The position numbers and the translations under genes are program-made. Below the pieces are notes generated by a model, which was not told the DNA's origin, searched no databases, and saw only the letters and a program-made list of their open reading frames with translations. Below are positions 305-43,907 of a DNA stretch of 45,048 bases, one piece after another (positions within the stretch are counted from its first letter, which is position 1; every line of letters begins with the position of its first letter). The stretch covers positions 1 to 45,048 of the IMG/VR virus record IMGVR_UViG_3300036796_000044; one strand, written 5' to 3'. The DNA comes from a virus. Lineage: Duplodnaviria > Caudoviricetes.

Positions 305-528
305 TGTTTAACGCAAAGGAGCCGGGCATGGCTATGGACGATGCACTATTCAAGGCCGCCGTCGAAGCTGCTGTGAAGCTGGAAGGTGCTGAGCGTGCGC
401 CGTTGTTCGAGGCGTTCGCTCATGTTGTCAGGGACTTCTTGCTCGATGTTGAGCGTATGGCGGAAGCGTTGGAGCGTATTGCTGACGCTGCGGAGGGCGT
501 GCCTCTGTCTGAGTCAAACGGAGAATGA
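304..528 (+). CDS. hypothetical protein
   Basis: TAATG coupling to the upstream gene and ATGA coupling to the downstream gene. Confidence 0.7.
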   Translation: MFNAKEPGMAMDDALFKAAVEAAVKLEGAERAPLFEAFAHVVRDFLLDVERMAEALERIADAAEGVPLSESNGE

Positions 529-1406
529 TTATGGTGCAGCCATTCAAAGTAGGTCCAGTGACGGTGCAGTCTGGACGGGAGATCGCTAAGAGGATGGCTA
601 TAATGCTTTGGGGAGCAGCAGCTAGCGGCAAAACCTCATTTGCAGCCACAGCGCCGGGGGATAAGCTGTGGCTGTCGTTCGGGGATCAAGAGCATGTATC
701 GGTCGCGCATCGCTCAGATGTGCATGTCGCTAATCTGTCGGGGCTGTCGGCGGAAGAGTTGTTCAAGCACGCGCTGAGTGACAATCCGTTCGGGATGGAC
801 CAGATACTTGCGGAACATAAGAACATCGAAACGGTTGTGTGTGACTCAGCTACGGCTTTGGTGTATCTGGCGTTGCAGCGATCAATAGAGAGAGGAACTG
901 GCGCGGGCAGGCGTGGCTTCGTACCGACAATCGAAGAGCCAGGACAGTCCGCGTATGGTGCCCGTAATGCCTTGATGCTAAAGGTGCTGACGGGCTTGCT
1001 GCGCGTGACGGCAAAGCATAATGTGCATCTGATAGTCACTGCACATGAAGCTGATCCTATAATGGAGATACGAGACGGCAAGGAGGTAGTGAGTCACATT
1101 AGCGTCATGCTTGGTGGCCAACTAGTCAATAATGTGACGTTCCGGCTGTCGGAGATATGGTATATGTCAGCACAAAGAGAACGCAGGCTGGCTGTAAGGT
1201 CAGTGAGACTGCGAAGGCCGATGAAAACGCGTATGTTTTCAGGTGACGGCGATGCAGAGTTTCCGCTGGAGTACAACTCGGAGTTGCCTGACAAAGGCCA
1301 AATGACTATCGCCGGTTGGTACAACAAATGGGTCAAGCTAGGGACCAAGATACTGCCAAACGGCAAGGATACCCAGGACAGTGGGTCTTCGAAACGCAAC
1401 AAGTGA
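525..1406 (+). CDS. Sak4-like / AAA_24 P-loop ATPase (recombination/annealing)
   Basis: Walker A GAAASGKT, Walker B VVCDS and VTAHE motif. Located between the exonuclease and SSB-like genes. Confidence 0.8.
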   Translation: MIMVQPFKVGPVTVQSGREIAKRMAIMLWGAAASGKTSFAATAPGDKLWLSFGDQEHVSVAHRSDVHVANLSGLSAEELFKHALSDNPFGMDQILAEHKNIETVVCDSATALVYLALQRSIERGTGAGRRGFVPTIEEPGQSAYGARNALMLKVLTGLLRVTAKHNVHLIVTAHEADPIMEIRDGKEVVSHISVMLGGQLVNNVTFRLSEIWYMSAQRERRLAVRSVRLRRPMKTRMFSGDGDAEFPLEYNSELPDKGQMTIAGWYNKWVKLGTKILPNGKDTQDSGSSKRNK

Positions 1407-1435
1407 CTCTGTCCAGTCACTTCTGGAGGATGATA

Positions 1436-1978
1436 ATGGCTGAAGACGATGAAGCCCTCGATATCATCGAGCTTGACGAAAGCCTCGCTGATGTTGAGAA
1501 ACCGGCAGAGTTGCCTGCCGGGCTGTACGTCGGAGAAATCCAGGACGTGCAGGTTGCCACAAGTGCCAAAGGCAACGCTTACTACGCTGTCCGGTTCATC
1601 ATCGGGCCTGACGAGATTCCCGCTGACATTCAGCAGGATTTCGAGGATGGCGCGGTGTTGTTCTGGAACCGGCAGATCAGGCCAAGGGACGGTAAGGATC
1701 GCCGCGCCTTGTTCAATCTGCGCAAGTTCGTTGAGGCTATCGGTCTGGATGCGAATACGTCTTCGATCGACCCCAACGATTGGATGGGTTGCCGTGCCCG
1801 ATTGAGGATCAGGCAGACCATCAATCCGCGCGATCCCACGTCTGGCAAGCGTGCGGAGATTGCGTCGATCGAGCCGCTGGAAGACGCTCCGGCGCCTCGT
1901 GGAGCACCGGAACCGGAGCCAGAGGTAGAGACGGCTCCAGCGGCACGCGGTCGTGCAGGCCGCGGCCGTACGCGGTAG
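1436..1978 (+). CDS. DUF669-like single-stranded DNA-binding protein
   Basis: GGAGG RBS at 1425. LPAGLYVGEIQDV..SAKGNAY pattern, position after the Sak4-like ATPase, and a disordered C-tail. Confidence 0.7.
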   Translation: MAEDDEALDIIELDESLADVEKPAELPAGLYVGEIQDVQVATSAKGNAYYAVRFIIGPDEIPADIQQDFEDGAVLFWNRQIRPRDGKDRRALFNLRKFVEAIGLDANTSSIDPNDWMGCRARLRIRQTINPRDPTSGKRAEIASIEPLEDAPAPRGAPEPEPEVETAPAARGRAGRGRTR

Positions 1979-1986
1979 TTGAGGAT

Positions 1987-2025
1987 GGCCCGACACTGTG
2001 TGAGTCAAACAGTGTCGGGCCTTTT
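1987..2025 (+). terminator. Intrinsic terminator whose apex is the 15-bp palindrome
   Basis: GGCCCGACACTGT-GTGAGTCAA-ACAGTGTCGGGCC-TTTT directly after the SSB stop. Confidence 0.8.
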
Positions 2026-2054
2026 GTGTAAGCAAATAGCAGAGAAGGAGAGAA

Positions 2055-2288
2055 GTGATGGAAGGAGAGCAGGACGTGGAAGATCAAGTATGGGTCCGAG
2101 CGCAGATCGTTGCAGCGCTCTGGGAGAGTGATAACGATTGTAGCGAACCGCACATCGAGCGGCAAGCTGACTCGATTATGAGACTTCTGGAGCGAACAGC
2201 CGGCGCAACAGACACGTATCATGTGTTCGTCGGTTATCTGAACGACCTGCGACTGAGAGGAAAGGCAGGGGAGGGCAGCGATGGTTGA
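2055..2288 (+). CDS. hypothetical protein
   Basis: AAGGAG RBS upstream; overlaps the next start. Confidence 0.65.
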   Translation: MMEGEQDVEDQVWVRAQIVAALWESDNDCSEPHIERQADSIMRLLERTAGATDTYHVFVGYLNDLRLRGKAGEGSDG

Positions 2289-2487
2289 CTCGGTGCAGTT
2301 GCGCCTCGGTGAGTATGTCAGCCGAGGCGTCTGTCAGGTGATTATTCGAGTGCGACTGGAGGACAGAAGAGACATAACGACGGCAGCGCAATTGCTGGGC
2401 CTTACGCAAGCTCAGTTCATGCGTAATGTACTCGTCCAGACAGCTAGAGCAGTCATAGCAGAGGTTAAATCAGAAGAGGCTGCGTAA
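2281..2487 (+). CDS. ribbon-helix-helix DNA-binding protein (DUF1778-like)
   Basis: QVIIRVRLEDRRDITTAAQLLGLTQAQFMR fits the beta-strand/helix/G/helix RHH pattern. Confidence 0.7.
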   Translation: MVDSVQLRLGEYVSRGVCQVIIRVRLEDRRDITTAAQLLGLTQAQFMRNVLVQTARAVIAEVKSEEAA

Positions 2488-2807: not shown

Positions 2808-4056
2808 GCAGTTGACGAGTGTGAGACAAACACGTTTGAGTAGCGAGCAGAAGTACGCCATAGACCTCTGCCAGGACATGACCAGCCGCATTGTTTCAGT
2901 CACTGGCGGTGCTGGGACCGGCAAGACGCTGGTGCTCGGCTATGTGTATCACGAGCTATGCAAGAAGTACAAGGTGGCATTGTGCGCTCCGACTGGCAGA
3001 GCCGCGAAGCGTATTTACGAACTGACAGGCATCACAGCGAAGACCATACACAAGTTGTTGGAGTATCCGCAGCCTAACGACGACCCACTATACGGTGACG
3101 ACGGTGACGAGATACCACCAAGGAACGAGCCGAAGCGGTGCGCTGCATACCCACTCGATGAATTTGTCGTTCTCGTTGACGAGTCGTCGATGATCGGACC
3201 AGAGCTTTATCATGGACTCATAGCAGCATTGCAGAAGAAGGGCGTGATTAGGTTCTTCGGCGACAACAACCAATTGCTACCAGTAGAGGAAGGGCCGCCG
3301 CCATTCAGGACGATATTGGCCAAGTTCCCAGCAGTCACATTGACGTATAACTTTAGATCGGATGACGAGATTGTAAGCAACGCGTATCGCATCCTGCGTG
3401 GTCAAATTCCGTTGCGTAATGATAGGTTCGACGTTCGGTACGAAGACAATCCCACGCTTACGCTGATTAAGCTGATCGAGGGGCACCCTGAGTATGCGGA
3501 CGACGGCAACCAAATTATTATGCCCACGCGCAAGGGACCTGTAGGTACGCTGCGTGTCAATCCGTCTATCCAGGTGAAGCTGAATAAAGACAAGCAGTTG
3601 TTGCGCTTGCCACGATTCGACAAGAAAGAGCGTGATCTTGTCATACGCGCAAATGATAAATTTCTGTGGGTCAAGAATGATTATCAGTTGGACCTGTTCA
3701 ATGGCGAAATTGGTCGTGTAGCTAAGATTGATACCGAGGATGGTTCGATCTGGCTAAAGACTTCCGAAGGGCGTAGCATCGAAGTACCACCGAGCATTAG
3801 GGCATACAATAACTTTCTGCGGACTACAATCAATTACGATCCGCGCAAGCAGCTTGAGTTGGGTTACGCCATCACGACACACAAGGCACAGGGCAGCGAG
3901 TTCAATACTGTGGTCTATTGTATGTCCAGCACGTCACCGTTCCTGTTGAACCGGAACAATTTCTACACAGCCGTGACACGAGCCAAGACGCGCGTGCTCA
4001 TTATAGCGGATCGCAGAGCGATGTTTCTGGCACTCCGCCGCGAGGTACGCACATGA
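2794..4056 (+). CDS. RecD2/Dda-like superfamily 1B helicase
   Basis: Motifs GGAGTGKT, APTGRAAKR, TIHKLL, VDESSM, GDNNQLLPV, YAITTHKAQGSEF and YTAVTRAK. GTG start chosen from AAGGAG at 2781 (ORF is open from 2728). Confidence 0.92.
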   Translation: MGESEQLTSVRQTRLSSEQKYAIDLCQDMTSRIVSVTGGAGTGKTLVLGYVYHELCKKYKVALCAPTGRAAKRIYELTGITAKTIHKLLEYPQPNDDPLYGDDGDEIPPRNEPKRCAAYPLDEFVVLVDESSMIGPELYHGLIAALQKKGVIRFFGDNNQLLPVEEGPPPFRTILAKFPAVTLTYNFRSDDEIVSNAYRILRGQIPLRNDRFDVRYEDNPTLTLIKLIEGHPEYADDGNQIIMPTRKGPVGTLRVNPSIQVKLNKDKQLLRLPRFDKKERDLVIRANDKFLWVKNDYQLDLFNGEIGRVAKIDTEDGSIWLKTSEGRSIEVPPSIRAYNNFLRTTINYDPRKQLELGYAITTHKAQGSEFNTVVYCMSSTSPFLLNRNNFYTAVTRAKTRVLIIADRRAMFLALRREVRT

Positions 4057-4074: not shown

Positions 4075-4626
4075 ATGAGCCGTTTGACTCAAACGAGGCG
4101 GCAGCGATATATAGTATTCACAGGGCCATCGCTCAGTGGCAAAAGCACCGCGGCTGCATTGCTCGTGTCATGGTTCCGGCAGAAGGGGTGCTCAGCGGTG
4201 CATTGCTCCTTCGAAGCGCCAATGAAGCATTATCTAGCTATGTCATTAGGGCTGAAGTTAGGGAGCTTCAAGATGGACGAGCCGTTGTCCGTATTATTAT
4301 CAAAAACCTGCAAGGACTTTCTAAGACTTGAGGCGGCGCATCTACGGTTCAACTATGGGCCGAACGTTATGGGCAGCATGTTGAAGGAAAGGACAAAGCA
4401 CTGGCGGCACAATCCTGTATACGTTGTGGTGGATGACGGCGTGAGCATGTTGGATTGTCGTGCGCTCGGAGACTACTTCCTGATTCAGATTGTGCGTGAT
4501 GCGCAAGAGCGCGTATATCCATTCATGATTCCGAACGCGAATGCGCATATCCGCAATGACGGAACGTTGGATGATCTACAGGCGAAGATCGCGAAGATTG
4601 CAACAATCATAGAGGAAGAGAAATGA
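4075..4626 (+). CDS. deoxynucleoside monophosphate kinase-like P-loop protein
   Basis: N-terminal GPSLSGKST, SFEAPMK, VVVDD and C-terminal IRNDGTLDDL, typical of phage dNMP kinases. Confidence 0.7.
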   Translation: MSRLTQTRRQRYIVFTGPSLSGKSTAAALLVSWFRQKGCSAVHCSFEAPMKHYLAMSLGLKLGSFKMDEPLSVLLSKTCKDFLRLEAAHLRFNYGPNVMGSMLKERTKHWRHNPVYVVVDDGVSMLDCRALGDYFLIQIVRDAQERVYPFMIPNANAHIRNDGTLDDLQAKIAKIATIIEEEK

Positions 4627-7094
4627 GCATAGCAGAAGAGTTTGCCGCGATGGCTAGCGCGTATGGCCTTGACGTACAGGCTGTTTGCAGCGGTCCTGCG
4701 GAGGCCGAGACTGCGTTCATAGGTGAAGGGCTCGGCGAGGTAGAGGTGCGTAAGAAGGCTCCGCTTGTTGGCAAGTCCGGTCAATTGCTGTGGAAGCATA
4801 CGGCTCGCTACGGACTCACGCCGGAGAATGTGTATGCGACCAATGTCATCAAGCGGCAAATCACTATGTCGGAGACTTCCAAGTTCAAGATGGATGTGCA
4901 TGAGCTTGCGCAGTGGCATGAGTTGCTGCAATGGGAGTTGTCGCAACTGCCGAACCTCAAGACGGTCGTGCTGCTCGGCGGTTACGCGCTCACTGCCGTG
5001 CTCGGCAAGAACGGCATAGGTTCTTGGCGAGGATCGGTAGTGGATATCAATCTGCCGAACGGTAAGAGGGGAAGTGCTGTTTGTACCAACAATCCAGCGT
5101 ATCCATTACATGAGCCCAAAGCTGAGATCACGTTCCTGATGGATATGCAGAAGGTCGGGCAGGTTGTAGCAGGAACGTTCAAGCCGTACGAGGTTGATGC
5201 AATTATCAACCCGACGTATCGAGAAACCATGTCGTTCCTGCTCGACATGCAGCGCACCAACAAGCCGGTGGCTGCCGACATTGAAGGATTGAATGACGAG
5301 ACTGCGTGTATGGGTCTCGCGAATGAGGCGCATCGCGCCATCTGCATTAACTTCCGTGACGCTGATCGCAATACGTTCACACCAACGGAAGAGCAGGATG
5401 TTTGGATGGCGATCCAGAGGCTGTTTGACTCACACAAGGTCATCGCACAGAACGGAGGGTTCGATGCGTATTGGTGTAGGCTCCGTGACTGGCTCCGCAT
5501 TCGTGTCTGGTTTGATACGTTGCTGGCGCATCACACTCTCTACCCGCAACTACCGCACAACCTTGCTTATCTCACTAGTCAGTACACGAACCACCCCTAC
5601 TACAAAGACGAAGGAGACTACTGGAAAGAAGGAGGAGACATTAACGAGTTCTGGGTCTACAACTGCAAAGACGCAGCCATAACTTGGGCGATTGCGCAGA
5701 GAGAGCGGGCTGAGTTGGAGAAGCAGGGGCTGAGCAAGTTCTTCTTTGAGCATGTCATGCGTGCGCAACCGCATTTGGTGGAGGCAACAGTGCATGGCCT
5801 GCCGGTGGATAAGACAGTGAAGGCAGCGATTGCTATGGAGATTGATAAGGATGTGGCAAGCATCGAGGAGGAATTCCATAGGCTTGTGCATGAGTGTACG
5901 GAGGATTCGACATACTTTCCGAATCCAGGCTCGTGGCAGCAGATGCGTGAGCTATTCTTCGAGCGGCTCAGTCTGCAAGGCGTAGGGCTGTCTACAGACA
6001 AGACGAATCGTGACCACATAATGAAGCACGCGAAGACACGGCCAGTAGAAAGGGAGATGCTATCTGCACTGAATAAGTACAAAGAGGAAGACAAATTTCG
6101 TGGCACGTACGCTAACGCGAAGGAGTCGAAAGATGGGCGGTTTCGGTTTGAGTTTAAGCAGTACGGAACGCAGAATGCTCCTGGACGGCTGTCCTCTGCT
6201 CAGCTTATTAACGGTGAGGGTGGTAACATCCAGAATCAGCCTATGCGAGCCAGAGGCTTCTTTGTTACAGACCCTGGATGTGTCTATATCTACTTTGATC
6301 TGGCACAGGCTGAGGCCCAGGTTGTTTCGTTCAGAGCCGACATTGCTAAGTGGAAGGACCAGTTTGCCAGAGCACGACGTGACGGCAGTTACGATTGCCA
6401 TCGTGCACTGGCCTCGGAGATGTTCAAGGTTCCTTACGCGGATGTACCAAGTTCGGATTGGGACGAGGATAATCGCCCTACGATTCGCTATGTCTCCAAA
6501 CGTTGCCGTCATGGGCTTAACTACCGCATGGAGCGGTTCAGGCTCTCAGAGGTAACAGGCTTGTCGTATCATGTAGCTGCCCGGGCGTTCTTGTTGTATC
6601 ATAAGATCACGCCCGAGTTGCAGGATTGGTGGAAGCAGGAAGAGTATACGTTTAGAAAGGATCGAGCGCTGTACAATGCACTTGGTCGCAGGTTTCGTGT
6701 GTTGCAGCCAGTAGATGACGAGGTGGCCAAGTCCGTCGTGGCGTTTTATCCTCAGAGTACGATCGGCGACAAGGTCGTGCAGGTATGGTACCAGGCAGAA
6801 GAGGATGACGAATGGCCGAAGGGACACGCCAGGGTTGCAATCAATGTCCACGATAATCTTGTGGGTATGGCAGAAACCAAGTATGCAAAGACGGCTCTCC
6901 GCATCTTGAAGAAGTATGCGGAGAGTCCTTTGATGATTCAGGATGCATGGGGACGAAGGCCGCCCGAGCCGTTATCGATCGGAGCGGAATGCAAGATATC
7001 GTATCCAACAAGCTGGGACGAGAAGACGAAGCGTTTCGTGGAGGACCCAAACGGGTTGCATCGCTGGAGCAACATGAAGACTGTTGCTGTTTGA
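4623..7094 (+). CDS. polA: family A DNA polymerase with N-terminal family-4 UDG-like domain and 3'-5' exonuclease
   Basis: UDG-like FIGEGLG..E...PLVGKSGQLL..YATNVIK. Exonuclease ADIE, QNGGFD, YNCKD. Pol motif A DLAQAE, B KRCRHGLNY, C VHD. Confidence 0.93.
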   Translation: MSIAEEFAAMASAYGLDVQAVCSGPAEAETAFIGEGLGEVEVRKKAPLVGKSGQLLWKHTARYGLTPENVYATNVIKRQITMSETSKFKMDVHELAQWHELLQWELSQLPNLKTVVLLGGYALTAVLGKNGIGSWRGSVVDINLPNGKRGSAVCTNNPAYPLHEPKAEITFLMDMQKVGQVVAGTFKPYEVDAIINPTYRETMSFLLDMQRTNKPVAADIEGLNDETACMGLANEAHRAICINFRDADRNTFTPTEEQDVWMAIQRLFDSHKVIAQNGGFDAYWCRLRDWLRIRVWFDTLLAHHTLYPQLPHNLAYLTSQYTNHPYYKDEGDYWKEGGDINEFWVYNCKDAAITWAIAQRERAELEKQGLSKFFFEHVMRAQPHLVEATVHGLPVDKTVKAAIAMEIDKDVASIEEEFHRLVHECTEDSTYFPNPGSWQQMRELFFERLSLQGVGLSTDKTNRDHIMKHAKTRPVEREMLSALNKYKEEDKFRGTYANAKESKDGRFRFEFKQYGTQNAPGRLSSAQLINGEGGNIQNQPMRARGFFVTDPGCVYIYFDLAQAEAQVVSFRADIAKWKDQFARARRDGSYDCHRALASEMFKVPYADVPSSDWDEDNRPTIRYVSKRCRHGLNYRMERFRLSEVTGLSYHVAARAFLLYHKITPELQDWWKQEEYTFRKDRALYNALGRRFRVLQPVDDEVAKSVVAFYPQSTIGDKVVQVWYQAEEDDEWPKGHARVAINVHDNLVGMAETKYAKTALRILKKYAESPLMIQDAWGRRPPEPLSIGAECKISYPTSWDEKTKRFVEDPNGLHRWSNMKTVAV

Positions 7095-7095
7095 G

Positions 7096-7200
7096 TCAAA
7101 CAGGGGGCCTGATTAGCGTGAGGATGAAAATCCAGAATGCAGTCAGGCTTGCCACGACCGCGATCCACATAAGGCAGCCCACCCACTCGTTCTGTGTCAT
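7096..7200 (-). CDS. small single-TM membrane protein (34 aa), not in ORF track
   Basis: MTQNEWVGCLMWIAVVASLTAFWIFILTLIRPPV*. ATGA overlap with the upstream gene; stop is supplied by the palindrome. Confidence 0.6.
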   Translation of the reverse strand: MTQNEWVGCLMWIAVVASLTAFWIFILTLIRPPV

Positions 7201-7427
7201 GATAGTTTCTCGATGTTTGTTGTGGCGCGCCATTGGGCTATTTGCCCGGGCAGTATGTACTTGTTAACTTTTTTATCAGCCGCAAGTATCTTGAGGAACG
7301 CTATCACCTCGCCGTCGCGAATGTTGCCGCCAGCCTTAGCGATAAGCTCGGACTGGCGGCGACCTTGTGTGCCGCCGTCGATTAGGAACTTCGTGATCTT
7401 TACTTGCCAGTCATCGTCCGTGCTCAT
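7197..7427 (-). CDS. small putative winged-helix DNA-binding protein
   Basis: 76 aa; ITKFL..G.RQSEL....EVIAFLKIL..KKV....WRA resembles wHTH topology. Coupled to the giant gene's stop. Confidence 0.5.
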   Translation of the reverse strand: MSTDDDWQVKITKFLIDGGTQGRRQSELIAKAGGNIRDGEVIAFLKILAADKKVNKYILPGQIAQWRATTNIEKLS

Positions 7428-10400: not shown

Positions 10401-13400
10401 CCTTCCTCAACTGCCGCATTCGCTAGAGACTGTGATTGTGAGCCGGTGTATTCCCTGAGCATGTCATGTAGCTCGTCTAGCACTTGAGGCGTCAATCCTG
10501 TCTTTGCCGCATACGAATCGATAGGGCCTATTCGGTCGTTGGCAAGAAGCGAATAGTCTTTGGGTGTGAAGTTCGCTTTCCATGTTAAAGACGCAGGCGC
10601 AGCAGTGGGTATCGCCGGTACGCTAGGCGGCGGTATGCTAGGCGGCGGTACGCTGGGCGGCGGCGCGACGGGTGGTGTTTGAGTCAAACTGGGCTGCGGC
10701 GTGCCGGGCATTGGAGGCAGGTTAGGAACCTGATTAGCCGGCACAACGTCCACAGGTATGGCTCTGGTGGCGGCAGGTGCCGGTATGGATACAGCGGCTG
10801 GTCCTGCAGGAGGCCGTATAATAGGCGGTGCTTGTCGTTGCGTTCCTGGTGCAGGCTGCGGAAGCACTGGAGGTTCTGTGCGCTGAGTAACGTCTGCGGC
10901 TTGCACCTCGGCAGCACGACGGGCAGCGACAGCCCTAGGATTCATTCCGAGTGCACGTGGATTTGTTGCGAATGCACGAGCGTTCGGTGGAGGCACCGGA
11001 GGAGCGGCCGGCGGCGGTGGTATTTGGGGAGCAGGCGGCAGTTTGGTCGGTGCAGCCGCCTGCACGGGAGGCTGTGTCTCACGTAATGCAAGAAGCTCTC
11101 CGACAGGACTTAACCCTTTGGTAGCCAGTGGAGGCGCTACGGGTGCCTCGGCCGCAGGAGGTGGTGCGGCGGCGGTAGGCTTCTCGAATGTAGGTTCCAG
11201 GCGGACGAACTTTCCAGTCGCAGGGTCTTTCGGATGCACAGGCATTCCAGGCCGCTCGACGAACTGTCCTGAAGTGTCTCTAGGAAGCTCTGGCATTATT
11301 ATCTTGCCGCCAGCCGAGCCAAGCCCTGTAGGTGTCCTGAATGGCGTGGTTGCTCCTATTGTAGCCTGTGCTGCCTCATTGGCCCAGTCTATTGCTTCCT
11401 GTTCGCGAGTTCCGCCAAGCATATGGCTGATATCGCCGTGGTAAGCCTCTTCTGCCATTCGTCCCGGAGTCATGGCGGTTTCGTATGCACCTTGCGCCAT
11501 GCGTGACGGAAGGCCAGCAATTGCCATACCGACTCGCGCCCCGGTGCTCGCCGCGCCTTCTGGAGGCACTTCTCCAAGCGCCAACGCTTTGGCAATCTGT
11601 GTTCCAGTATTATCAGATAGATGGTCTTGCACATGCGTCATGGACTTCTGGTTCTCGCCGCTCATGTGACTAAGCGGCTTTATCTCTCCGTTCGCAAATC
11701 GTTGCAGGAACTCTGGCGACTGCGCTATGCCCTTCGTCATGCCAATGGTAGGGTCTAGTGCTGCATCGAATGCCTGCACATTTTGCGGCTGCCCGTCAGC
11801 GCCGATCACTGTGTGAGTCAAACTCGGCATATCGGTTGGCAGCATGGCACTGGCCATCCACCACGGGAGAAGGTCAGCGTCCGACGGCGTTGTAGCAGGC
11901 TGTAAGTCTACAGGCGGCACCGGAGGCAACGGCGACACAGGCGCTTGCGGCTGCATAGGACGCTTTAGCTGATCCAGGTATTCGCGCATCGCCGCCACGT
12001 CCTGATCTTCTTGTGGCGGTCCAGCTTCCTCCGGCTGTTGAATCGGTTCGTCAGGCGCACCGGCTATGTTTACGCTGGCCACCTGATACGGTAGCTCGGG
12101 TGATGCATCCGTCATGGTTCCGGTGTCACGTGCTGCATACCGGATAGGCGCTGCCTTACCGCCCATCATCGATGCGACCCATTTCGCATCGGCATTCTCT
12201 TGGACGAAACGTTCGCCGGTACGTGGATCAAATGCCACAGGCGCACCGCCGGAATGCACGCTGCCGCTCTCGTTGCCTGTAGCAAAGTTACTGACGTTTG
12301 AGCCGCGCAGTGCATTCTGTATGTAACCGTTGATACGTCCTTGTTGATCCGGCCCAAAGCCTTCGCCAAGCTTTCTTATGGTTGTGTCAGGGTAGTAGCC
12401 GCGCTGGCCAGTCACGGGATCGATTTGAGAATGGGCGCTCGTAAGAGCCTGATTCAGCGTCATGCCACGCGACGCAGCGCGATTCATCACCGACTCGATG
12501 TACGCCTGCTCGGCTCGCGGTCCCTGCCCGCCGACTTCTGCGTTGACCGAAGCTGCAAATAATCGCCGCGTATTGGGATCAGCAAGCTCTTGGCTGAATT
12601 GCGCCTGCCGCAACTGCATTAGATTGTTTGCAGATGCTGGAGCCGTTGCACCGCCATATGGCCCAGGAGCGCCAGCAGCGCCAGCACCAGGACCAGGAAT
12701 ACTACCGCTAGGACCAGCCGCCCCTGATCGCCCTCCAGCCATCTGGATATGCACAGGGTCGCGTTGGAATGCGCTGCCTTTAAGGAACTCCAGCCCGTAA
12801 CGACCCGCATTCTGATGCAGGTAATCCAGCACCGGACCCTTGCGTATATCTGCCGCCAGACCTTGTTCATGAAGGCTGCGTCCGGGCGGAGCGGCCAACC
12901 CGCCCGTGTTGTTTGGATTCGGCTGGTACGTGGTTCCTCCGAAGGTGACGGGGTGTCTGGTGTAGTCTGCATAGTATTGTGCCTGTATTTCTGCTGGTCG
13001 GTATAGATCGGATAGTGAAGCTTTGGACCCTGTAGCTGATTCGGCAGCTTGTATTGCCTGTGTTAGCCTGTTCGCAAAGGTTGGATTGAGAAACTGCGCA
13101 TTGAGATCAGTGCCGCGACTGAGCAAATATTGATAAGGCTGTACTGCACCCGCAGGCGATGGCATGTTCTGTACAGGTGGAGGAGGCGTGTTCGATGCAG
13201 CAACGGCATACGGCTGCTGTGTTGGTGGAGCAGGCGGCGGTGTGTAAGCAGCCGGAGATAGCGCTTGTAATGTCTCGGCGGGGGATGCCTGCATACCTTG
13301 CAAGTTTCCCATCGGCTGCATTGGTAGCGGCATGGGCGGCGGCGGCACCATGCCGATAGTAGCCCCCTGTGGGCCTTCCTGTGGAGATGCCAGCATGACG

Positions 13401-13558: not shown

Positions 13559-13584
13559 CTGTTTGACTCACACAGGCTTGGGGT

Positions 13585-16541: not shown

Positions 16542-16573
16542 GGGACGCTCCTGTGTGTGAGTCAAACAGCGGA

Positions 16574-17978: not shown

Positions 17979-17992
17979 CTGTTTGACTCACA

Positions 17993-19372: not shown

Positions 19373-19399
19373 AGTCCCGTCCTCGTTTGAGTCAAACGC

Positions 19400-24008: not shown

Positions 24009-24024
24009 GATGCACCTGTTTGAC

Positions 24025-24881: not shown

Positions 24882-24898
24882 AGTGTTTGACTCACACA

Positions 24899-26488: not shown

Positions 26489-26521
26489 ATCTATTCTCCT
26501 GTTTGAGTCAAAAAGCTAGGA

Positions 26522-27490: not shown

Positions 27491-27512
27491 CGGTAGAACT
27501 CCGTTGTTTGAC

Positions 27513-28592
27513 TCAAACGCCTAGAGAGTCAAGCGTCTCCCTGAGTATCGAGTCGTACGATTGCCCTATAGGCGCCATGCCGTTCGATTGTGTGAACTGT
27601 GGCGATCCGCGCCCGGTTGGTAAGTTCCGTCTCGCTTGTCTCATCTGCCCGTTGCCGTTGTTAGCGGTCAAGCGCATATGGTTCAACTGTATCCTCGCCC
27701 AGACCTCGCTCATGGACATGTGCTGGAACTGGGGTTGACTCAATACTGCATGGAATACTGGTATATACTCCCGCGCTGCGGGGTTCGAGATGAAGAAGCC
27801 ATTGACCTCACGTTCCGTCTCATGATACACACGCTGAGCCGTTTCCTGCTGCTGCTGTTGAAACTGCTCGGCTTGCATACGCTGTTGCAGTGGAGTCAGC
27901 GCCCCTCTGATCTCGTTCTGCACCATACCCATCAACGCCTGGGAGTCCACACCACCAGGCGAAATACCAATTCGTGTAACATCGACGCCGGCAGCGGCCG
28001 CCATTGTCAGAATCTTCTTGAGCGTAGATACAGGATCACGCTTCGCTTCTGACGCAAGTTGCATCGCCTGAATGGACTCGCCATCGTTCAGACCCAGGCG
28101 TGCAGCCGCGGTGTTCCGGTCGTTAAGCTGCGCTGTGAGCCCTTCGATTCGATTATGGAACTGTTGCCCCAATTCAATCGCTCTCGTCAGCCGCGATGTT
28201 AGGTCCTGCGAACGAGCCTGCTCCGTTGCAAGCTCCCGCCGGCTGCGCTGTGTCTCCTGATACATGCGGGCTTCGAAACCCGCCTTGGCGACAACCTTAC
28301 CATCAGCACCGATCAGGTTCCCGCGTTGGTCGGCCTGGACCTCTGCACCGCGAGGCAGTGGTCGCGCCTGCTGCTGCGGTTGTTGTCGCCCCGGCTGTTG
28401 CTGACGAGGCTCACCGTATTCCTGCCGACCTCTGTCTGACTCAAACGACTCGCCGCTTTCCCCTAGTTCTCCGCTTTCGCCTTCCTCTCCGCCTTCTTCC
28501 CCTCCACCGATATCGGCTTCGTCCATACCAAGGTTATCCAGCACCATATCCATGGCGCTCTCTGAACCACCGTCCAGGTTCCGTTCCGTCAT
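27513..28592 (-). CDS. capsid scaffolding protein
   Basis: Acidic disordered N-terminus, coiled-coil body, located between portal and capsid. Confidence 0.65.
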   Translation of the reverse strand: MTERNLDGGSESAMDMVLDNLGMDEADIGGGEEGGEEGESGELGESGESFESDRGRQEYGEPRQQQPGRQQPQQQARPLPRGAEVQADQRGNLIGADGKVVAKAGFEARMYQETQRSRRELATEQARSQDLTSRLTRAIELGQQFHNRIEGLTAQLNDRNTAAARLGLNDGESIQAMQLASEAKRDPVSTLKKILTMAAAAGVDVTRIGISPGGVDSQALMGMVQNEIRGALTPLQQRMQAEQFQQQQQETAQRVYHETEREVNGFFISNPAAREYIPVFHAVLSQPQFQHMSMSEVWARIQLNHMRLTANNGNGQMRQARRNLPTGRGSPQFTQSNGMAPIGQSYDSILRETLDSLGV

Positions 28593-30965: not shown

Positions 30966-31060
30966 GTGTTTGACTCAAACAGTTGGAGTGTTTCGGGCGA
31001 GACGGTCAGAGGGACGCTCGAACCGCCCCGCCCACGCCCATCACACAGGGGTCAGCCGTG

Positions 31061-33308: not shown

Positions 33309-33324
33309 GTGTTTGACTCAAACG

Positions 33325-34173: not shown

Positions 34174-34200
34174 TGCAACCCCTCCCTGTTTGACTCAAAC

Positions 34201-34596
34201 TCAACGCGTGCCGAGTGGATTGCCGTCCTTGTTCGGTACTGGATTACTACCGAAGGTTGTACGCGTGGACCACGCAAGCACATCATTCTTGTACTCACTC
34301 ACATCCGCAGCCGTTGTCGCACGATTAATAAGAACTGTCTGCGTAATCGCACGCTTACCACCAAGTTCCACATTCGCTTCCACCTGCGGAAACGTCTGTG
34401 TCGCGACGGCACCGGGAGCTACGCCAGCCGTCGTAATCATGATCTTACGCAACGCTAACATAGACTTCTGAGCCAGGTTCTTGGCAGCAGACGAACGCCT
34501 GCCATCCTTACCACTGATACTCACCAACTGCGAAAGCCCGGCCGAGTCGCCGAACAAACCGCCTTTCACGTTTGCCGTAGCGGTATTCGTTGCCAT
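34201..34596 (-). CDS. hypothetical (possible virion) protein
   Basis: AGGAG RBS; compact ORF between its neighbours. Confidence 0.7.
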   Translation of the reverse strand: MATNTATANVKGGLFGDSAGLSQLVSISGKDGRRSSAAKNLAQKSMLALRKIMITTAGVAPGAVATQTFPQVEANVELGGKRAITQTVLINRATTAADVSEYKNDVLAWSTRTTFGSNPVPNKDGNPLGTR

Positions 34597-35166: not shown

Positions 35167-35330
35167 ATTCCTACCCCTTGTTTGACTCAAACAGCTTGCA
35201 GAAATCAGGGGACCGAGTCACCGTCGCAACGTACATGGCCAAACGTACGGATCGTGCTCGGCCCCCTGGCTGGACGGTCCTACCGTGCGGTGGGAGGATG
35301 CAAGCCGCAAAAAACCCATCCAACGCCCCA

Positions 35331-35359: not shown

Positions 35360-35413
35360 GCACTATTTTTCGTGTGATATCACAAATGATAGCACTAAGT
35401 ATCGGTGTTTGAC

Positions 35414-35650
35414 TCAAACACGCTTAGCCAGACGCCTCAATTTGTCTATTCTTGCCCTGCTTAGCCTATCCATGAGGAGCCATAGAGGCAAAATGACCCG
35501 TTTGCTATCAGAATCAATCACAACAAGACGCTTCGGAAGCATCAATTTATCGCCATCGATGACAAATGCAGCCTGTTTGTAGGTCTCAAAATGCGGCAAA
35601 ATGGTCTCGTACTTGACAATAATACGTCTCGCCGGCCTTTTCGCGGTCAT
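35414..35650 (-). CDS. small basic hypothetical protein
   Basis: MTAKRPARRIIVKY... is flanked by palindromes at 35671 and 35406; the latter provides its stop. Confidence 0.55.
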   Translation of the reverse strand: MTAKRPARRIIVKYETILPHFETYKQAAFVIDGDKLMLPKRLVVIDSDSKRVILPLWLLMDRLSRARIDKLRRLAKRV

Positions 35651-35756
35651 TTTGTGCAGTTCCTGATGGGTGTGTGAGTCAAACACGCGATGCGATTGGT
35701 GCTCGAAATATGTATATATATCCCTCCCGCGGAGCCACCCCACAGCATAACAGTCA

Positions 35757-35822: not shown

Positions 35823-36174
35823 CCCCGCTCATAACGAAGTGCGATGCCTGTTCACGGTTTGTTCACGGTGTTTTGCGTTTTTCCGCTCTCTGATCCGCCC
35901 TCTGGGCGTAGCACCTATCCTCTCCTCCGGGTTAGGTCTCTCCTCGCCGCAGGCACGGATAGTCCTAACCCACACACTAAAATCCACCTATGCACATGGT
36001 CTGTTTGACTCAAACACCGCATTCACAATACAACCCAAACGTGCACCGTACCGTGCATCCTGCGAATCTGGCGAGCCTGCGTTTTCGCAAAGGCTCATCG
36101 TGCATCCTGCGATTTCCAGGAGTGCGATCGTGCCGACACCGTACCGCCCCCCCCCATCCCCCCCCGAAAGTCAA

Positions 36175-36263: not shown

Positions 36264-37064
36264 CCACCAACTAATGCCGATGGCACGGGCGTTTCTTGCA
36301 TTGTGTGATTTGTTGTTTGATATTTGATTGGAAGGAGGTGATGGAGCCTCCCTAATTTTGTTTGATTGGCGAATGTTTGATTGGTGGTCCGTGCCGGTGA
36401 GGCGCGTCAATTGGCCTGTAGTGGGCACTGTTTGAGTCAAACGATAGCGCGACTTGTTGTTGGTCCGTATTTGTTTGGTTGTTGGTTGTTGGTTGGTTGT
36501 TGGTAGGAGGCGATGGGCTCACTGATAGGATATTCCGTGCCTTCGGCGAGGAATGGCCTATCGTGGTGAGGGAGGTGTGGGACGCGTGGCCGCGTATGGG
36601 CGATTGGGCGATGGGAGATGGCATAGGCCTAGAACGCCATAGGAAGGGCAAGGATGGGCTTGCGCGTGGTGGCCGCTAGGGTAGTAGCCTGTTTGACTCA
36701 AACACGCGTACGGGCATTTGTGGGCGTTCTAGAGGCATGTGCGGCAGGATGACGCAGGATGAAAAAAAGGTCTTGCATGGGTCGTATGGGCTCGGTATGG
36801 TGGCGATATCAGATTGATAGCGAGGTGATGGCAGATAGGTTCTGGGTTGGGTTGCGGGCGCCGGCTCCCATTGTAGACACCGGCATGGACAGATCACGAC
36901 GCATCATGTATGCGTGGCACAGAATGCCCCCTCACACGGGTTGCTGCCCTAGTAGTCTAGGGCGCGTGCCATCAGCGCGGACCATCAGATGACGTACGGG
37001 CATTAGCGCGGACCACAAAGCTCTGATATTAGGGGCGGTCGCGCAAGGTACTCAAACGGGCTTG

Positions 37065-37772: not shown

Positions 37773-38837
37773 ATGGTAGTTAAGTCCCGTTTGAGTCAAA
37801 CAAACCCGCGCGCCATGGGAACTAATCCTAGGGCGGCGGTAAGGCCTGTTGAAACGAAAGTGTCGAAGCCCGTACCGAAAGGACGAGCGGAGACGGCGGC
37901 GGAGAAGGCCGCTAACGAGACTACCGGCGGTATCGTGGCAGTCAAAAGGTCCGCGCTATCGGTGGACGTTGGTCCGCGAGTTATTCATGCCCTCTGGAAC
38001 AATTCCAGCCGGGAGATGGAGATCACGGACGAGCTGAACCAATTGCAGGGTCGCAAGCAGTATGAGCAATTGTCACAATTGACGATGGCCATAATCAAGG
38101 CTGCCCGTGCGGACAAGTCTATTGACCTGTCCGTGCTTTACGAAGGCGAGAAGAAGGCGATGGAAAAGCTGAACAATCAGCTTGGCATTGCCTTGGGCTT
38201 TCGTGAAGTCAAGAGCGAACCGGACAAGAATGGAGTGGTTTACGAGAGTGTCGTGACGAGCGCCAGTGTCGGCGACTGCTTCCCAATGCCCGGAGAAACG
38301 GAAACCAACACGACCGACTTCAATCGCAAAAGGACGTTCAGAAGCAACTTCCTTACGCAATTGAAGAAGTGCGCTATGGGCGCGCACAGTGCCATCGAAC
38401 AGAACATCGATGTTAAGTTCGATGAGAAGGCCGGTACCTTGCTAATCTCTGGTCCGGCGGTCAAAAAGCATTTCGGCCAAGAGCGCGTGCTTCTGGACGA
38501 GCGCAAGACCGTCGGATTGGGCGACGCGAGGGTGGAACTGAGCGAGAAGCCTAGCTTCACGTCGCTTGGTCATATCGGTGCTGCGGCGTTGGGCGTTGCT
38601 TCCGTAACTGGTGCCGGTAATCACAGAACCAGGCAAGCTGGAACGGTCGGTGGTACGCTCGCCGCCGGTGCTGCGAAGGCAGCAGAAGTGACGGGCAAGG
38701 AAAGCCTTGACGCCGCGATCCTAACCATCTGCAAGTCTCTGCGGACGGCGCTGGAGAAGACCAAGGAACTGAGCAAGAACGCGGTTGCGGCCTTGGAAGA
38801 GACCAAGAACGCAATCGAGGTACGGCTCGCGAACTAG
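37773..38837 (+). CDS. early protein of unknown function (354 aa)
   Basis: GGAGG RBS, own promoter and terminator, Lys/Ala/Glu-rich. Palindrome lies in codons 6-10. Confidence 0.85.
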   Translation: MVVKSRLSQTNPRAMGTNPRAAVRPVETKVSKPVPKGRAETAAEKAANETTGGIVAVKRSALSVDVGPRVIHALWNNSSREMEITDELNQLQGRKQYEQLSQLTMAIIKAARADKSIDLSVLYEGEKKAMEKLNNQLGIALGFREVKSEPDKNGVVYESVVTSASVGDCFPMPGETETNTTDFNRKRTFRSNFLTQLKKCAMGAHSAIEQNIDVKFDEKAGTLLISGPAVKKHFGQERVLLDERKTVGLGDARVELSEKPSFTSLGHIGAAALGVASVTGAGNHRTRQAGTVGGTLAAGAAKAAEVTGKESLDAAILTICKSLRTALEKTKELSKNAVAALEETKNAIEVRLAN

Positions 38838-38846: not shown

Positions 38847-38882
38847 CGGGCCGGTACAGAAATGTGCCGGCCCGGTCTGTTT
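38847..38882 (+). terminator. GAAA-tetraloop hairpin terminator running into the palindrome
   Basis: CGGGCCGGTACA-GAAA-TGTGCCGGCCCG-GTCTGTTT. Confidence 0.65.
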
Positions 38883-38910
38883 GACTCAAACACTGAATAG
38901 GAGTGCAGAA

Positions 38911-39173: not shown

Positions 39174-39238
39174 GGATGGTTCTTCTGTCCAGAGGGGTGG
39201 AGGAACGGGCTGTTTGAGTCAAACAACAGGAGTGCAAG

Positions 39239-39448
39239 ATGGACGCGACGAGCAAAGCTATTCAGGATGCAGCGAAGGTGCATGTCATGAGCACGGTGCT
39301 GGAAGGAATGGTTGATACGGTCGGGCTGGCGAAGGTGTTGGACTTGCTGACCGATATCTGCCACGAGAAGGCCAGTGAGAGCATGGATGATGCCTGGGAA
39401 GACGCAGCGGAAGGCCTGTCGAGAGTAAGTGCCTTCGTTAACGTGTGA
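39239..39448 (+). CDS. hypothetical early protein
   Basis: AGGAGTGCA RBS; bounded by palindromes, with its stop inside the 39442 copy. Confidence 0.75.
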   Translation: MDATSKAIQDAAKVHVMSTVLEGMVDTVGLAKVLDLLTDICHEKASESMDDAWEDAAEGLSRVSAFVNV

Positions 39449-39468
39449 GTCAAACAGAGGGGTAAGCT

Positions 39469-39660
39469 ATGATGAAATGGGTTAAGGGAATGAAGGTGCG
39501 AGCCGACGACGGTTTCAGTTGTATACAAGCTGGTTCCGTGCTGGAAGTCAAGGAGTCGGATGTTGGGCCATACGTGGAATGCACATTCGGGGTTGGGAAG
39601 CATTACCTGTGTGGTGAGGAGCCTGGGTTTAAGTGTGTGAGTCAAACAGAAGGAGAGTGA
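39469..39660 (+). CDS. hypothetical early protein
   Basis: GAGGGG RBS after the palindrome. Confidence 0.65.
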   Translation: MMKWVKGMKVRADDGFSCIQAGSVLEVKESDVGPYVECTFGVGKHYLCGEEPGFKCVSQTEGE

Positions 39661-39661: not shown

Positions 39662-39964
39662 GTGCGCCACGAACGAGAGAAATTTATCCTCTGCCCTGTG
39701 TGTGAGGGCAGAGGCGTTACCGTCAACCCGAGCATCGATGCGCACGGGTTGACGCGAGCAGACTTCGCGGAAGACCCGGAGTTCGAGCGTGATTACTTCA
39801 GTGGCATGTACGACATTACGTGCCGTGCGTGCAATGGCAAGCGTGTGGTGACGAGAAACCGCTTGCAGGAACTAGATCGGCACGCTAGGGAACGCGAGCA
39901 GGCAGCGCAAGAGGACGGAAACTGGGAAGAGTATCAGGGCGCTCGTGATTGGCGCTTTGGGTAG
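39662..39964 (+). CDS. DnaJ-type zinc-finger motif protein
   Basis: CPVCEGRG and CRACNGKR (CxxCxGxG-type). Confidence 0.75.
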   Translation: MRHEREKFILCPVCEGRGVTVNPSIDAHGLTRADFAEDPEFERDYFSGMYDITCRACNGKRVVTRNRLQELDRHAREREQAAQEDGNWEEYQGARDWRFG

Positions 39965-39997
39965 TGTGAGTCAAACAGGCAAATAGGAGTGCAAACG

Positions 39998-40599: not shown

Positions 40600-40799
40600 G
40601 CAAGGTGATCGTATGTCGTAAGGTGCGTGTTAACCAAGACGGATATGCGTATAGTGGCAGGCATTACTTCGGTACTGGCGTGCCGCTGTACTATGTCGAG
40701 CGTGAGGATGGACGCAGCGATCATGTGCGTGCATTCTCACGCGATGCAGCGATCAGGCTGTTTGAGTCAAACAGAAGGAGTGCATATTGTGAAGAATAG
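40596..40799 (+). CDS. hypothetical early protein
   Basis: ATGA coupling; GY..G.YFG.G.PLY pattern. Confidence 0.65.
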   Translation: MSKVIVCRKVRVNQDGYAYSGRHYFGTGVPLYYVEREDGRSDHVRAFSRDAAIRLFESNRRSAYCEE

Positions 40800-41781: not shown

Positions 41782-41809
41782 CTGTTTGAGTCAAACAGTT
41801 ACCCCGTGG

Positions 41810-42177: not shown

Positions 42178-42587
42178 TGGCGCTCGTGCTCCAACCAGCG
42201 TTCAGCGATAAGACGCGAGAAGAGATCGAGCAGCATCTGCTTGTGGTCAGAGCGAGGCGCATGGCAGCGGTTGTGACGTACTACGCTGGCGTGAATGCAA
42301 AGAACCTGCATTTGATTATCAAGGATCGGCAACGCATTGCACGGGAGTATGCCATGCTTGCTCGCGAGCTTGTCAAGATGGACAAGCTCGATGCAATAGT
42401 CGAGACACGATTGGCGAAGCTTACTCAACTCCAGCAGGAGTTGGACATTCATCAAAGCAACATGGTGGAGATCGCGGATGATCGAGAAGAGAGTAGGGCT
42501 GCGGGAGGTGGAGACAAAAAGGGAGCCAACGGAGAGTACAAACGAGCCAGTGGCGCTGTCAGGTCGGGCCGTCCACCAGGCGCGTGA
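42177..42587 (+). CDS. hypothetical coiled-coil protein
   Basis: Translationally coupled start. Confidence 0.65.
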   Translation: MALVLQPAFSDKTREEIEQHLLVVRARRMAAVVTYYAGVNAKNLHLIIKDRQRIAREYAMLARELVKMDKLDAIVETRLAKLTQLQQELDIHQSNMVEIADDREESRAAGGGDKKGANGEYKRASGAVRSGRPPGA

Positions 42588-42741
42588 GCGGTTTCCGATG
42601 GAGTTGCCGCAGCACAAGATGTTGGTCAAGTGCCCTGACGGTGAGCAATCATGGACGATATATGTGGAGTTCACAGATTATCGTCCAATGTGCCCGGAGT
42701 GCGGACAGTTAATGGACGTAATCACAGAACAGGAGGAATAG
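42478..42741 (+). CDS. small zinc-ribbon-like protein
   Basis: CPD..and CPECGQLM motifs. Start uncertain (42478 or 42598). Confidence 0.5.
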   Translation: MIEKRVGLREVETKREPTESTNEPVALSGRAVHQARERFPMELPQHKMLVKCPDGEQSWTIYVEFTDYRPMCPECGQLMDVITEQEE

Positions 42742-42972
42742 ATGCTACATCCCGAAACATTCAACTATTTGCAACCAACGCAAGCGCAGATCAATCGTAT
42801 GCAAACAGTGCGCGACAGGTTCGCCAAGTTTGCGTTTGAGCTTGAATCATTGTTGCCGGACGGGCCTGATAGAACTTATATTATGCGCCAACTGCGGGAG
42901 GTTGCGATGTGGGCAAATGTCACCATTACGCGATTGCCCGATGGTACTCCGCGACATGACGGGGAGTCATGA
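42742..42972 (+). CDS. Acb2/Tad1-like hairpin protein (candidate immune-signal sponge)
   Basis: TFNYLQPTQAQINRM..VR....LPDGPDR....QLREVAMWAN..ITR matches the F.Y..P..Q..R..P..R..L.E..MWAN.I.R pattern recalled for this family. Confidence 0.6.
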   Translation: MLHPETFNYLQPTQAQINRMQTVRDRFAKFAFELESLLPDGPDRTYIMRQLREVAMWANVTITRLPDGTPRHDGES

Positions 42973-43250
42973 CAATGTCGTTGACGTTTAACCAGTTCCA
43001 GAAAGAGTTGCGTCAGATGAACGTCGATGGCAAGACGGCGTATTTTCTCACAATGATCTATGAGCGTCTGATCGACACGGAGAACCAGTTGATGACGTGC
43101 GCAAGGCTCGTGGAGAGTATGGCCGACTCCATGCAGGGCTTTGTGGAGTTGAACGAGGCGCAGCAACGGGAGATGCGAAAGGTGCTGCGTGGTGGTCGGC
43201 CTGACGGCATCGAAGTGGAGAGTGTAGCAATCAAACCGGAGGAAGACTAA
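42969..43250 (+). CDS. hypothetical protein
   Basis: GGGGAG RBS and ATGA coupling. Confidence 0.7.
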   Translation: MTMSLTFNQFQKELRQMNVDGKTAYFLTMIYERLIDTENQLMTCARLVESMADSMQGFVELNEAQQREMRKVLRGGRPDGIEVESVAIKPEED

Positions 43251-43251
43251 C

Positions 43252-43662
43252 ATGAAGCTAGATGGCATCGAGGTGCGTGACGCGATTAGGCCGTGTGTGC
43301 TCAAGATCAACAAGGCCGATGCAAATTCCGGCCAGAAAGACCCATCGACTTGTGCAGCGGCAAAAGCAGCTTGCAGGGTGGGAAACGTAGTGGAGGCGCG
43401 TATCTATCGGACGAGATCGTACCTATTGATAGGCAAGTCGTGGGTACGGTACGCTACGCCCGGAGCGTTGCGCGTCGAGTTGATTGCATTCGATCGCGGC
43501 GGCAGATTCGATCCCGGCGAGTATGTGCTGGAGACACTGCCGGCGAATAAGCAGATCGGCATGGAAAAGAGACGCAAGCCTACAGGGCCGAAGAGACAAA
43601 AGAGAATGGCTCCGCATGTCATCAGGGGTATTCGGCCTCGGGCTCCGGTCACAGCAGGTTGA
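43252..43662 (+). CDS. basic hypothetical protein
   Basis: GGAGG RBS; DP..CA.A.A motif and a basic tail. Confidence 0.7.
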   Translation: MKLDGIEVRDAIRPCVLKINKADANSGQKDPSTCAAAKAACRVGNVVEARIYRTRSYLLIGKSWVRYATPGALRVELIAFDRGGRFDPGEYVLETLPANKQIGMEKRRKPTGPKRQKRMAPHVIRGIRPRAPVTAG

Positions 43663-43907
43663 CAATGTCAGAGATAGGAAGGGTGACGCTAATGGCTGTG
43701 GAAAAGGTTGTGGATTTGGTCGGCGCTGCGAAGGAGTTTGCAGACCTTCATTGCTATGCTAGCGGCGATCAGCGCAGGCTGTTCGAAATAGCGCTCGTGA
43801 GCCTTCTCATAAACACTTACGAGGGAGGTGTCGATACTGGGCGGCGTGAGCGTTTGAGTCAAACAGGGGAATACGAAGAGGAAGGCGGAGAAGATGAGGA
43901 GTGTTAA
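43659..43907 (+). CDS. hypothetical protein
   Basis: Coupled ORF with an acidic tail containing the palindrome. Confidence 0.55.
   Translation: MTMSEIGRVTLMAVEKVVDLVGAAKEFADLHCYASGDQRRLFEIALVSLLINTYEGGVDTGRRERLSQTGEYEEEGGEDEEC

Follow-up and report, generated by a model that had tools for sequence, protein, structure and literature searches.

What a short palindrome does when it recurs from one end of a phage genome to the other is the question raised by IMG/VR record IMGVR_UViG_3300036796_000044 (Duplodnaviria; Caudoviricetes). The stretch analysed, positions 1 to 45,048 of that record (45,048 nucleotides, hereafter the window), comprises an entire circular phage record: 44,904 bases and a terminal repeat. 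An earlier inspection of the letters alone (the sequence-only reading) had reported 36 copies of a 15-bp palindrome, TGT(T/G)TGA(G/C)TCAAACA. A search with TGTTTGA-N-TCAAACA at no more than two mismatches indeed recovered 36 sites, from position 506 to 43865, at a density of approximately one per 1.2 kb. The pattern as first written, however, fitted only 18 distinct sites (28 strand-hits; none in shuffled sequences), the remaining 18 differing from it in the outermost base, position 4 or position 12. With up to three mismatches, 39 sites were found, as compared with 1.67 ± 1.35 in 100 shuffles of the genome, which placed the repeat well beyond chance. A matrix trained on the genome added two weak sites (2818 and 24093), for a total of 38. 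The sequence GANTC was present in 36 of 36 window sites.

Conservation of the motif was investigated in 24 related records of 38-52 kb, five of which were added via the motif, nine via the capsid protein and ten via the helicase; 19 of the 24 were chosen by protein likeness, independently of the motif. One record nearly identical to the window (G001) was excluded from pooled tests, while G015 (81% complete) stood outside the set. All 25 clade genomes (the window and the 24 relatives) carried 33-51 sites each, with 40 each in G016 and G017. The clade as a whole follows the general pattern GT[T/G/A]TG[A/T]N[A/T]CA[A/C/T]AC, of which each genome has its own variant: the consensus changes in both arms together, to GTTTG, GTGTG or GTATG arms, with a centre that is G/C or free, and G016, G017 and G020 have A or T beside the centre. 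None of five sister records contained the general pattern. Among terminase loci, site density was 0.42-1.68 per kb in the 34 with at least 54% identity and at most 0.18 per kb in the 42 with 43-47% identity. Pairwise comparison with three relatives showed site cores to be 98.6, 97.8 and 86.9% identical, versus 91, 77 and 73% for the flanks. These results demonstrated that the motif is kept in related phage contigs, a point that the sequence-only reading had left to be checked. A scan of viral contigs for perfect sites yielded 136 loci, of which those with high copy numbers nearly all encode homologues of window proteins. A relative of the capsid protein is encoded by 210 viral-contig stretches in public metagenomes, and the clade is widespread, without a cultured member.

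Within the window, 32 of the 38 sites were located no more than 60 nucleotides (nt) from a gene start or end, where approximately 21% of all positions qualify. The sites, listed here without strand, are distributed as follows (aa, amino acids; SSB and RHH, single-strand-binding and ribbon-helix-helix protein).

506..520: site, end of 74-aa gene, directly ahead of the Sak4 gene
1997..2011: site, within a terminator-like hairpin stronger than that of any other site; located between SSB and the RHH-helicase-polymerase operon
2818..2832: weak site, first codons of the helicase gene
4081..4095: site, helicase / nucleotide kinase junction
5422..5436: site, codon 269 of DNA polymerase, LFDSH; 13 of 14 genomes share the column
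7088..7102: site, polymerase stop, convergence of the two arms
10676..10690: site, codon 959 of the 2044-aa virion gene, SLTQT
11810..11824: site, codon 581 of the 2044-aa virion gene, SLTHT
13560..13574: site, adjoins ATG of the 2044-aa gene
16554..16568: site, late gene junction
17980..17994: site, adjoins acetyltransferase ATG
19384..19398: site, between two tail fibre genes
20891..20905: site, codon 422 of the 920-aa tail fibre gene
22175..22189: site, ahead of the 920-aa tail fibre gene
24017..24031: site, before the 605-aa tail gene
24093..24107: weak site, within the 231-aa tail gene
24884..24898: site, late gene junction
26500..26514: site, after the major capsid gene
27505..27519: site, ahead of the major capsid gene
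28433..28447: site, codon 51 of the putative scaffold gene
30967..30981: site, adjoins portal ATG
33310..33324: site, adjoins large terminase ATG
34187..34201: site, before the small terminase gene
35179..35193: site, start of the late arm
35406..35420: site, divergent control region
35671..35685: site, divergent control region
36002..36016: site, divergent control region
36429..36443: site, divergent control region
36690..36704: site, divergent control region
37788..37802: site, codons 6-10 of the 354-aa early gene, RLSQT
38878..38892: site, directly 5' of a ribosome-binding site, early arm
39211..39225: site, directly 5' of a ribosome-binding site; downstream of a sigma-70-like promoter
39442..39456: site, early gene junction
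39634..39648: site, early gene junction
39963..39977: site, early gene junction
40759..40773: site, early gene junction
41783..41797: site, early gene junction
43851..43865: site, early gene junction

The distribution was also determined for 608 sites in 15 genomes. A gene end was no more than 60 nt away for 403 of them (66%), as it is for 18-25% of all positions; 127 (21%) were deep inside genes and 78 were in open intergenic DNA, mostly in a cluster of five to eight sites in the divergent control region. Measured from site centre to start codon, 45 sites were 9-10 nt and 144 sites 18-25 nt upstream of a gene.

The gaps between sites were more even than random, with coefficients of variation (CV) of 0.45-0.71 and a largest gap of 2.0-4.2 kb per genome. 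When junction sites were kept fixed and intragenic sites were scattered at random over coding DNA, the squared gaps of all 14 real genomes were still smaller, and their spacing thus more even (p ≤ 0.046; p = 0.0055 in the window), and the largest gap was smaller at p < 0.05 in 9 of 14. The even spacing therefore exceeds that of plain gene spacing. A site was present in all 15 genes longer than 3.5 kb and in 23 of 33 genes of 2-3.5 kb; genes above 3.5 kb contained 0.45 sites per kb, as compared with 0.14-0.23 per kb in genes below 2 kb. In the 6-kb virion gene, site positions differ between genomes, and the sites impose peptides such as SLTQT, VSHT and FDSN. The polymerase site occupies one column in 13 of 14 genomes, with a different peptide at that place in the fourteenth. 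These results showed that proteins have been recoded to hold sites and that the placement of sites fills gaps. Such selection for gap-free spacing, which was absent from the sequence-only reading, is the main feature of this genome-wide lattice of sites.

Complementary arm pairs at positions 2-7 of the sites numbered 3025, versus 3058 ± 9 when arms were shuffled within genomes, and those at position 4 numbered 357, versus 383 ± 7 by chance. Arms deviate singly, one or the other and not both together. Within the TTT group, 69 of 194 sites had a mid-stem mismatch and none had a compensating G-C. Overall, no stem extension past the motif was found; on the message strand, the sites showed a slight purine bias and only a mild strand bias. 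With arm pairing below chance and no compensatory changes, a hairpin role of the sites was rejected. An exception is the site before the RHH-helicase-polymerase operon, whose hairpin ranks among the four strongest in 19 of the 21 genomes with a site there; this hairpin is probably a terminator. The arm anti-correlation would fit a dimer that tolerates one weak half-site. Together with core conservation and clade-wide presence, it makes docking of a protein dimer on predicted double-stranded sites, with both arms read together, very likely, in agreement with the dimeric genome-wide binder that had been suggested from the window alone.

The reader of the sites is likely to be phage-encoded, because 35-50 sites per genome shift their consensus jointly and because sister lineages hold private palindromes. 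The latter are unrelated to the clade motif and dense in the early arm. G027 (L448-L450) contains 22 exact copies of TATAC-N3-GTATA, unevenly spaced (CV 1.02); G026 (L445-L447) contains seven copies of TATACGTATA; L523 has thirteen copies of TGACA-N2-TGTCA within 12 kb, about one per kb; and L535 and L507 have six copies each of other palindromic words. Such private words in neighbouring lineages would point to phage-encoded, quickly changing readers. Two window proteins were considered as candidates.

2281..2487, plus strand: 68-aa ribbon-helix-helix protein (DUF1778/AtaR-like), leading candidate reader (weak Pfam matches and fold model)
7197..7427, minus strand: 76-aa protein, free C-terminal domain of a DUF3987 primase-helicase, second candidate reader (weak fold matches)

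The RHH gene was found in 24 of the 25 clade genomes, the 25th record being without the region, and had 75 homologues, many of them named DUF1778. Its structural model (pLDDT 88) gave top fold matches that were all RHH (AtaR, KacA, NikA and Arc dimers), at E values above 0.3, and the protein encoded at 2281-2487 is thus modelled as having the RHH fold. It is tentatively regarded as the likeliest single candidate for the reader. A CACACA-N6-TGTGTG-like repeat, which may be an ancestral single RHH operator, was found between the -35 and -10 elements of the RHH promoter in 21 of 29 aquatic relatives that are without a lattice. The 76-aa gene was likewise kept in 24 of the 25 clade genomes. DUF3987 itself was found in none of the 25 lattice genomes and in two of the five sister records, and most sisters keep it after the polymerase. 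Loss of DUF3987 as the cause of the lattice was nevertheless rejected as a loose link only, which some sisters break. The 76-aa protein, which showed weak matches to Z-alpha winged helices (E 0.24-1.1), is probably a winged helix. Its domain is encoded on the late strand in the window, whereas several relatives have it on the early strand, following the polymerase gene.

Other proteins were also considered. The 354-aa early protein (37773-38837) occurs throughout the lattice clade and not in the sisters, with a site in its first codons; no family, atlas or fold match was found for it, the fold search yielding short helical matches only. The sequence-only reading had proposed four candidate binders, of which that at 2281 is an RHH protein and that at 7197 resembles a winged helix. 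Neither of the two tracks the motif, however, while the protein at 35414 is not universal and that at 37773 is without a recognisable DNA-binding fold. The major capsid protein (26522-27490) has a median identity of 82% in the clade, as compared with 50-57% for enzymes and 54-57% for polymerase, terminase and portal. This conservation suggested the capsid as a reader, an idea that was dropped because lattice-free sisters show the same pattern (capsid 82%, terminase 61%).

In the proposed mechanism, a palindrome of 13-15 bp is kept at 36-38 places, leaving no stretch of over approximately 2-4 kb without one, and the sites are probably docking points for a dimeric, predicted phage-encoded protein. 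By coating or bridging the entire phage chromosome as it replicates, the dimer would mark it as self instead of switching single genes. Junctions would be used as the cheapest places, and long genes would be recoded only where no junction is near. Since gaps over 2-4 kb are closed even at a cost in protein sequence, we infer that the job depends on distance along the DNA and not on single promoters. Judged from sequence comparisons, a dimer-docked lattice with a chromosome-wide coating, bridging or self-marking job has a chance only a little short of even. A wider, joint reading is distinctly less probable. According to it, lytic phages of this family would repeatedly have invented a private address lattice, in which a small phage dimer every 1-2 kb yields a self-marked, sequence-addressed nucleoid. 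Phage enzymes would spare or serve this nucleoid, whereas silencers and nucleases of the host would be unable to process it, and it would replace base modification or a protein shell by non-chemical means. The clade version would work without a ParB clamp, after loss of the primase-helicase.

Several observations weigh against a phage-encoded dimer that docks on the lattice. In a co-variation screen of 25 protein families in 24 genomes against motif distance, no protein tracked the motif. Partial r was -0.22 for the RHH protein and -0.31 for the 76-aa protein, and the best value (0.38, for a tail protein; p = 0.004) was not significant after 25 tests. No protein column fitted the homoplastic traits of the motif (centre, position 1 and position 2). 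The strand residues of the RHH protein vary, even from Arg to Glu in two loci, with the motif unchanged; RHH proteins also occur in sisters without a lattice, and two palindrome-bearing sisters are without a detectable one. Compared with the lattice site, the CACACA-N6-TGTGTG-like repeat in the RHH promoter is inverted; it also overlaps -35/-10 letters, and the half-site that the two share may be due to chance. Among the window open reading frames (ORFs), neither ParB nor another known spreading protein was identified. The location of 66% of sites at gene ends, with peaks at 9-10 and 18-25 nt upstream of the start, is also expected from a transcriptional or translational role. Moreover, the per-genome gap tests are not independent, the genomes being related, gene calls came from a simple in-house caller, and the score threshold is to some extent biased towards arm anti-correlation.

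Lifestyle and host were assessed from gene content and composition. The absence of a recognisable integrase or CI, noted earlier, was supported: neither these nor ParB were detected among 66-71 window ORFs, some of them without annotation (PHROGs, Pfam and NCBIfam), and 25 chosen proteins, and ParA and other known spreading proteins had no match among window proteins. No prophage was found in GTDB or in 80 metagenome loci, and GTDB gave no match for the capsid or the PEP-CTERM-like protein described below. Integration is without support, because no capsid-bearing metagenome contig above 48.3 kb was present among the 80 kept of 168. Outside the sites, GANTC was under-represented in 14 of 14 genomes (0.43-0.86 of expected) and was the lowest of 16 words in nine of these. 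CcrM methylates GANTC in Alphaproteobacteria, and the depletion is therefore a hint of an alphaproteobacterial host. A GANTC core for CcrM as a requirement of the sites was ruled out by its loss in G016, G017 and G020: in these genomes and further loci, GANTC is mostly gone from the sites, approximately 40 of which are kept.

Blocking of transcription by a phage repressor at every site would make the sites symmetric stoperators, which would time the lytic programme or hold a non-integrated dormancy in soil hosts. This explanation is rather unlikely, even though number, 13-bp core length and junction placement are like those of mycobacteriophage L5, the divergent promoter region contains a cluster of five to eight sites, a terminator-like hairpin ahead of the RHH operon incorporates one site, and RHH proteins are typical repressors. 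L5 sites are asymmetric, orientation-dependent and unevenly spaced, and road-blocks at junctions need no extra sites 2 kb inside one gene. Furthermore, no window site overlaps the -35/-10 elements of three chosen promoters (one does in G004), and integrase, ParA/ParB and prophages were not found in the searches given above. Poorer odds are assigned to a replication lattice, in which the 7197-7427 domain would load or restart host replication proteins at a spacing like that of Okazaki fragments. The C-terminal winged helix of the phage P4 alpha protein binds origin repeats, no primase was recognised among the window genes, and retention of the free domain (24/25) goes with the absence of DUF3987 from lattice genomes (0/25, versus 2/5 sister records). 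Yet DUF3987 is retained in L535, L507 and G026, which have palindromes of their own, while in L508, L526 and L533, which are without DUF3987 beside the polymerase, no palindrome was seen. The 76-aa domain, moreover, does not track the motif, and its fold derives from weak matches (E 0.24-1.1).

About as improbable as a replication lattice is recognition of the sites by a protein of an alphaproteobacterial host, possibly together with methylation of their central GANTC by CcrM, the variants then reflecting host shifts. It would account for GANTC in every one of the 36 window sites, for its depletion elsewhere in all 14 genomes and for the failure of any phage protein to track the motif; it is at odds with G016, G017 and G020, which mostly lost the central GANTC while keeping about 40 sites, and with the unrelated private palindromes of sister lineages. 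Hairpins in RNA or single-stranded DNA at translation starts (start-associated sequences, processing sites or hairpin promoters) could explain the two upstream peaks (45 and 144 of the 608 sites) and the slight purine bias. The below-chance arm pairing, the 69 of 194 uncompensated mid-stem mismatches, the lack of stem extension and the 127 sites deep inside genes make them very improbable. Least credible is a role as recombination boundaries. Many junctions carry sites, and repeats of Cluster O mycobacteriophages have mediated deletions, according to one report (PMC4351075). In comparisons with five relatives, 19 of 66 gene-junction breakpoints were at a site, whereas 40% were expected from the share of junction ends with one; sites were neither avoided nor preferred, and intragenic sites would break genes. 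The proposal that the sites act as boundaries for module exchange was therefore abandoned.

Palindromes such as matS, SBS and NBS, read by MatP, SlmA and Noc, lie inside and between genes of host chromosomes, where their role is tied to regional spread. The lattice resembles these in being made of spread-dependent palindromes and differs from them in that they belong to host chromosomes and have a far lower density; no homologues of MatP, SlmA or Noc were detected in the phage. The element is not new as a kind, contrary to the initial suggestion. Cluster O mycobacteriophages (Corndog), the nearest published parallel, have approximately 34 palindromic 17-bp dyads between and inside genes, no integrase and no explanation for the repeat, for which a dimeric protein was proposed (PMC4351075). 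Both systems combine at least 30 palindromic copies between and inside genes with the lack of an integrase, but those of Cluster O have another sequence and host group, half the density of the clade and invariant arms, in contrast to the genome-specific variants of the clade. Moreover, the Corndog repeat (37 sites, CV 0.93, a 6.9-kb gap, p = 0.41) was no more even than random. The L5 stoperators of Cluster A are described as more than 20 genome-wide 13-bp sites, many in short intergenic spaces, that are asymmetric, oriented and bound by a monomeric repressor in temperate phages (PMC9283540). With a consensus for these stoperators, 26 L5 sites were found (CV 1.14, a 10.4-kb gap), again no more even than random. 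Clade sites, by contrast, are palindromic, vary in both arms and fill gaps, and the repressor and temperate module of stoperator phages were not detected in the window (PHROGs, Pfam and NCBIfam).

Repeats just 5' of start codons are shared with two further groups. Cluster K start-associated sequences are asymmetric and lie 3-7 bp before the start codon in one arm (PMC3203893), and Microbacterium cluster EG phages, without integrase, have palindromic 18-bp inverted repeats (PMC7302621). Both types occupy one genome arm only, at 8-19 copies, nearly all intergenic (PMC3203893, PMC7302621), whereas clade sites are genome-wide and 21% are deep inside genes. The KorA/KorB operators of plasmid RK2 are dispersed palindromes read by element-encoded dimers and need the ParB-family clamp KorB (PMC11790492). 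In a KorA oligonucleotide shown there, the outer five bases of each arm are identical to those of the window site (PMC11790492). Centre and length differ, however, most clade variants lose the likeness, RK2 is a plasmid, and no counterpart of KorB was found among the window ORFs. No published account of the clade or of gap-filling spacing was found in literature mostly outside subscription journals.

The window encodes Sak4, SSB, a Dda/RecD-like helicase, a nucleotide kinase, a family A polymerase carrying a UDG-like domain, an exonuclease, terminases, portal, capsid, tail fibres and the 2044-aa virion protein; neither a primase nor a replicative helicase was recognisable among its genes. Contigs from two other studies represent related strains and span the part of the window from 25 to 45 kb. 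The closest cultured-phage matches for capsid, polymerase and terminase had 21-27% identity, and no DNA match or close protein match to the window was found among cultured phages. The 2044-aa virion protein (7424-13558), which has a VanY-like peptidase domain at approximately residues 157-241, is 1304 to 2254 aa long across relatives. Between portal and terminase, 31061-31750 encodes a protein of secreted type that has a signal peptide and ends in a sorting-like C-terminal tail, VPIPAALPLF, with a weak PEP-CTERM match; relatives carry different genes in that slot. An Acb2/Tad1-like anti-defence gene was found at 42742-42972 (Pfam E 1.5e-08). In the control region, low-complexity CAAA / TTGG tracts (36220-36510), possibly origin or terminus DNA, surround site 36429. 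A second, imperfect palindrome, TGCG(A/G)CA-N3-TG(T/A)CGCA, occurs at 35805-35823 (minus strand), 37684-37702 and 39121-39139, with a similar one at 36741; in 10 of 14 genomes it lies 1-30 nt 5' of sigma-70-like promoters. It resembles the RegA/PrrA/RegR box of Alphaproteobacteria or may be a phage operator; a literature search on the RegR/PrrA box returned nothing.

The repeat is real, strongly selected and of a known, unsolved kind, from which the measured gap-filling and the lack of a recognisable ParB-like reader set it apart. Dispersed palindromes in integrase-free phages have been described since Cluster O, and the placement observed here gives a handle on them. A 68-aa candidate and a 15-bp site make a first test cheap. 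If the lattice does mark self DNA, it would be a novel means of genome protection or organisation in phages.

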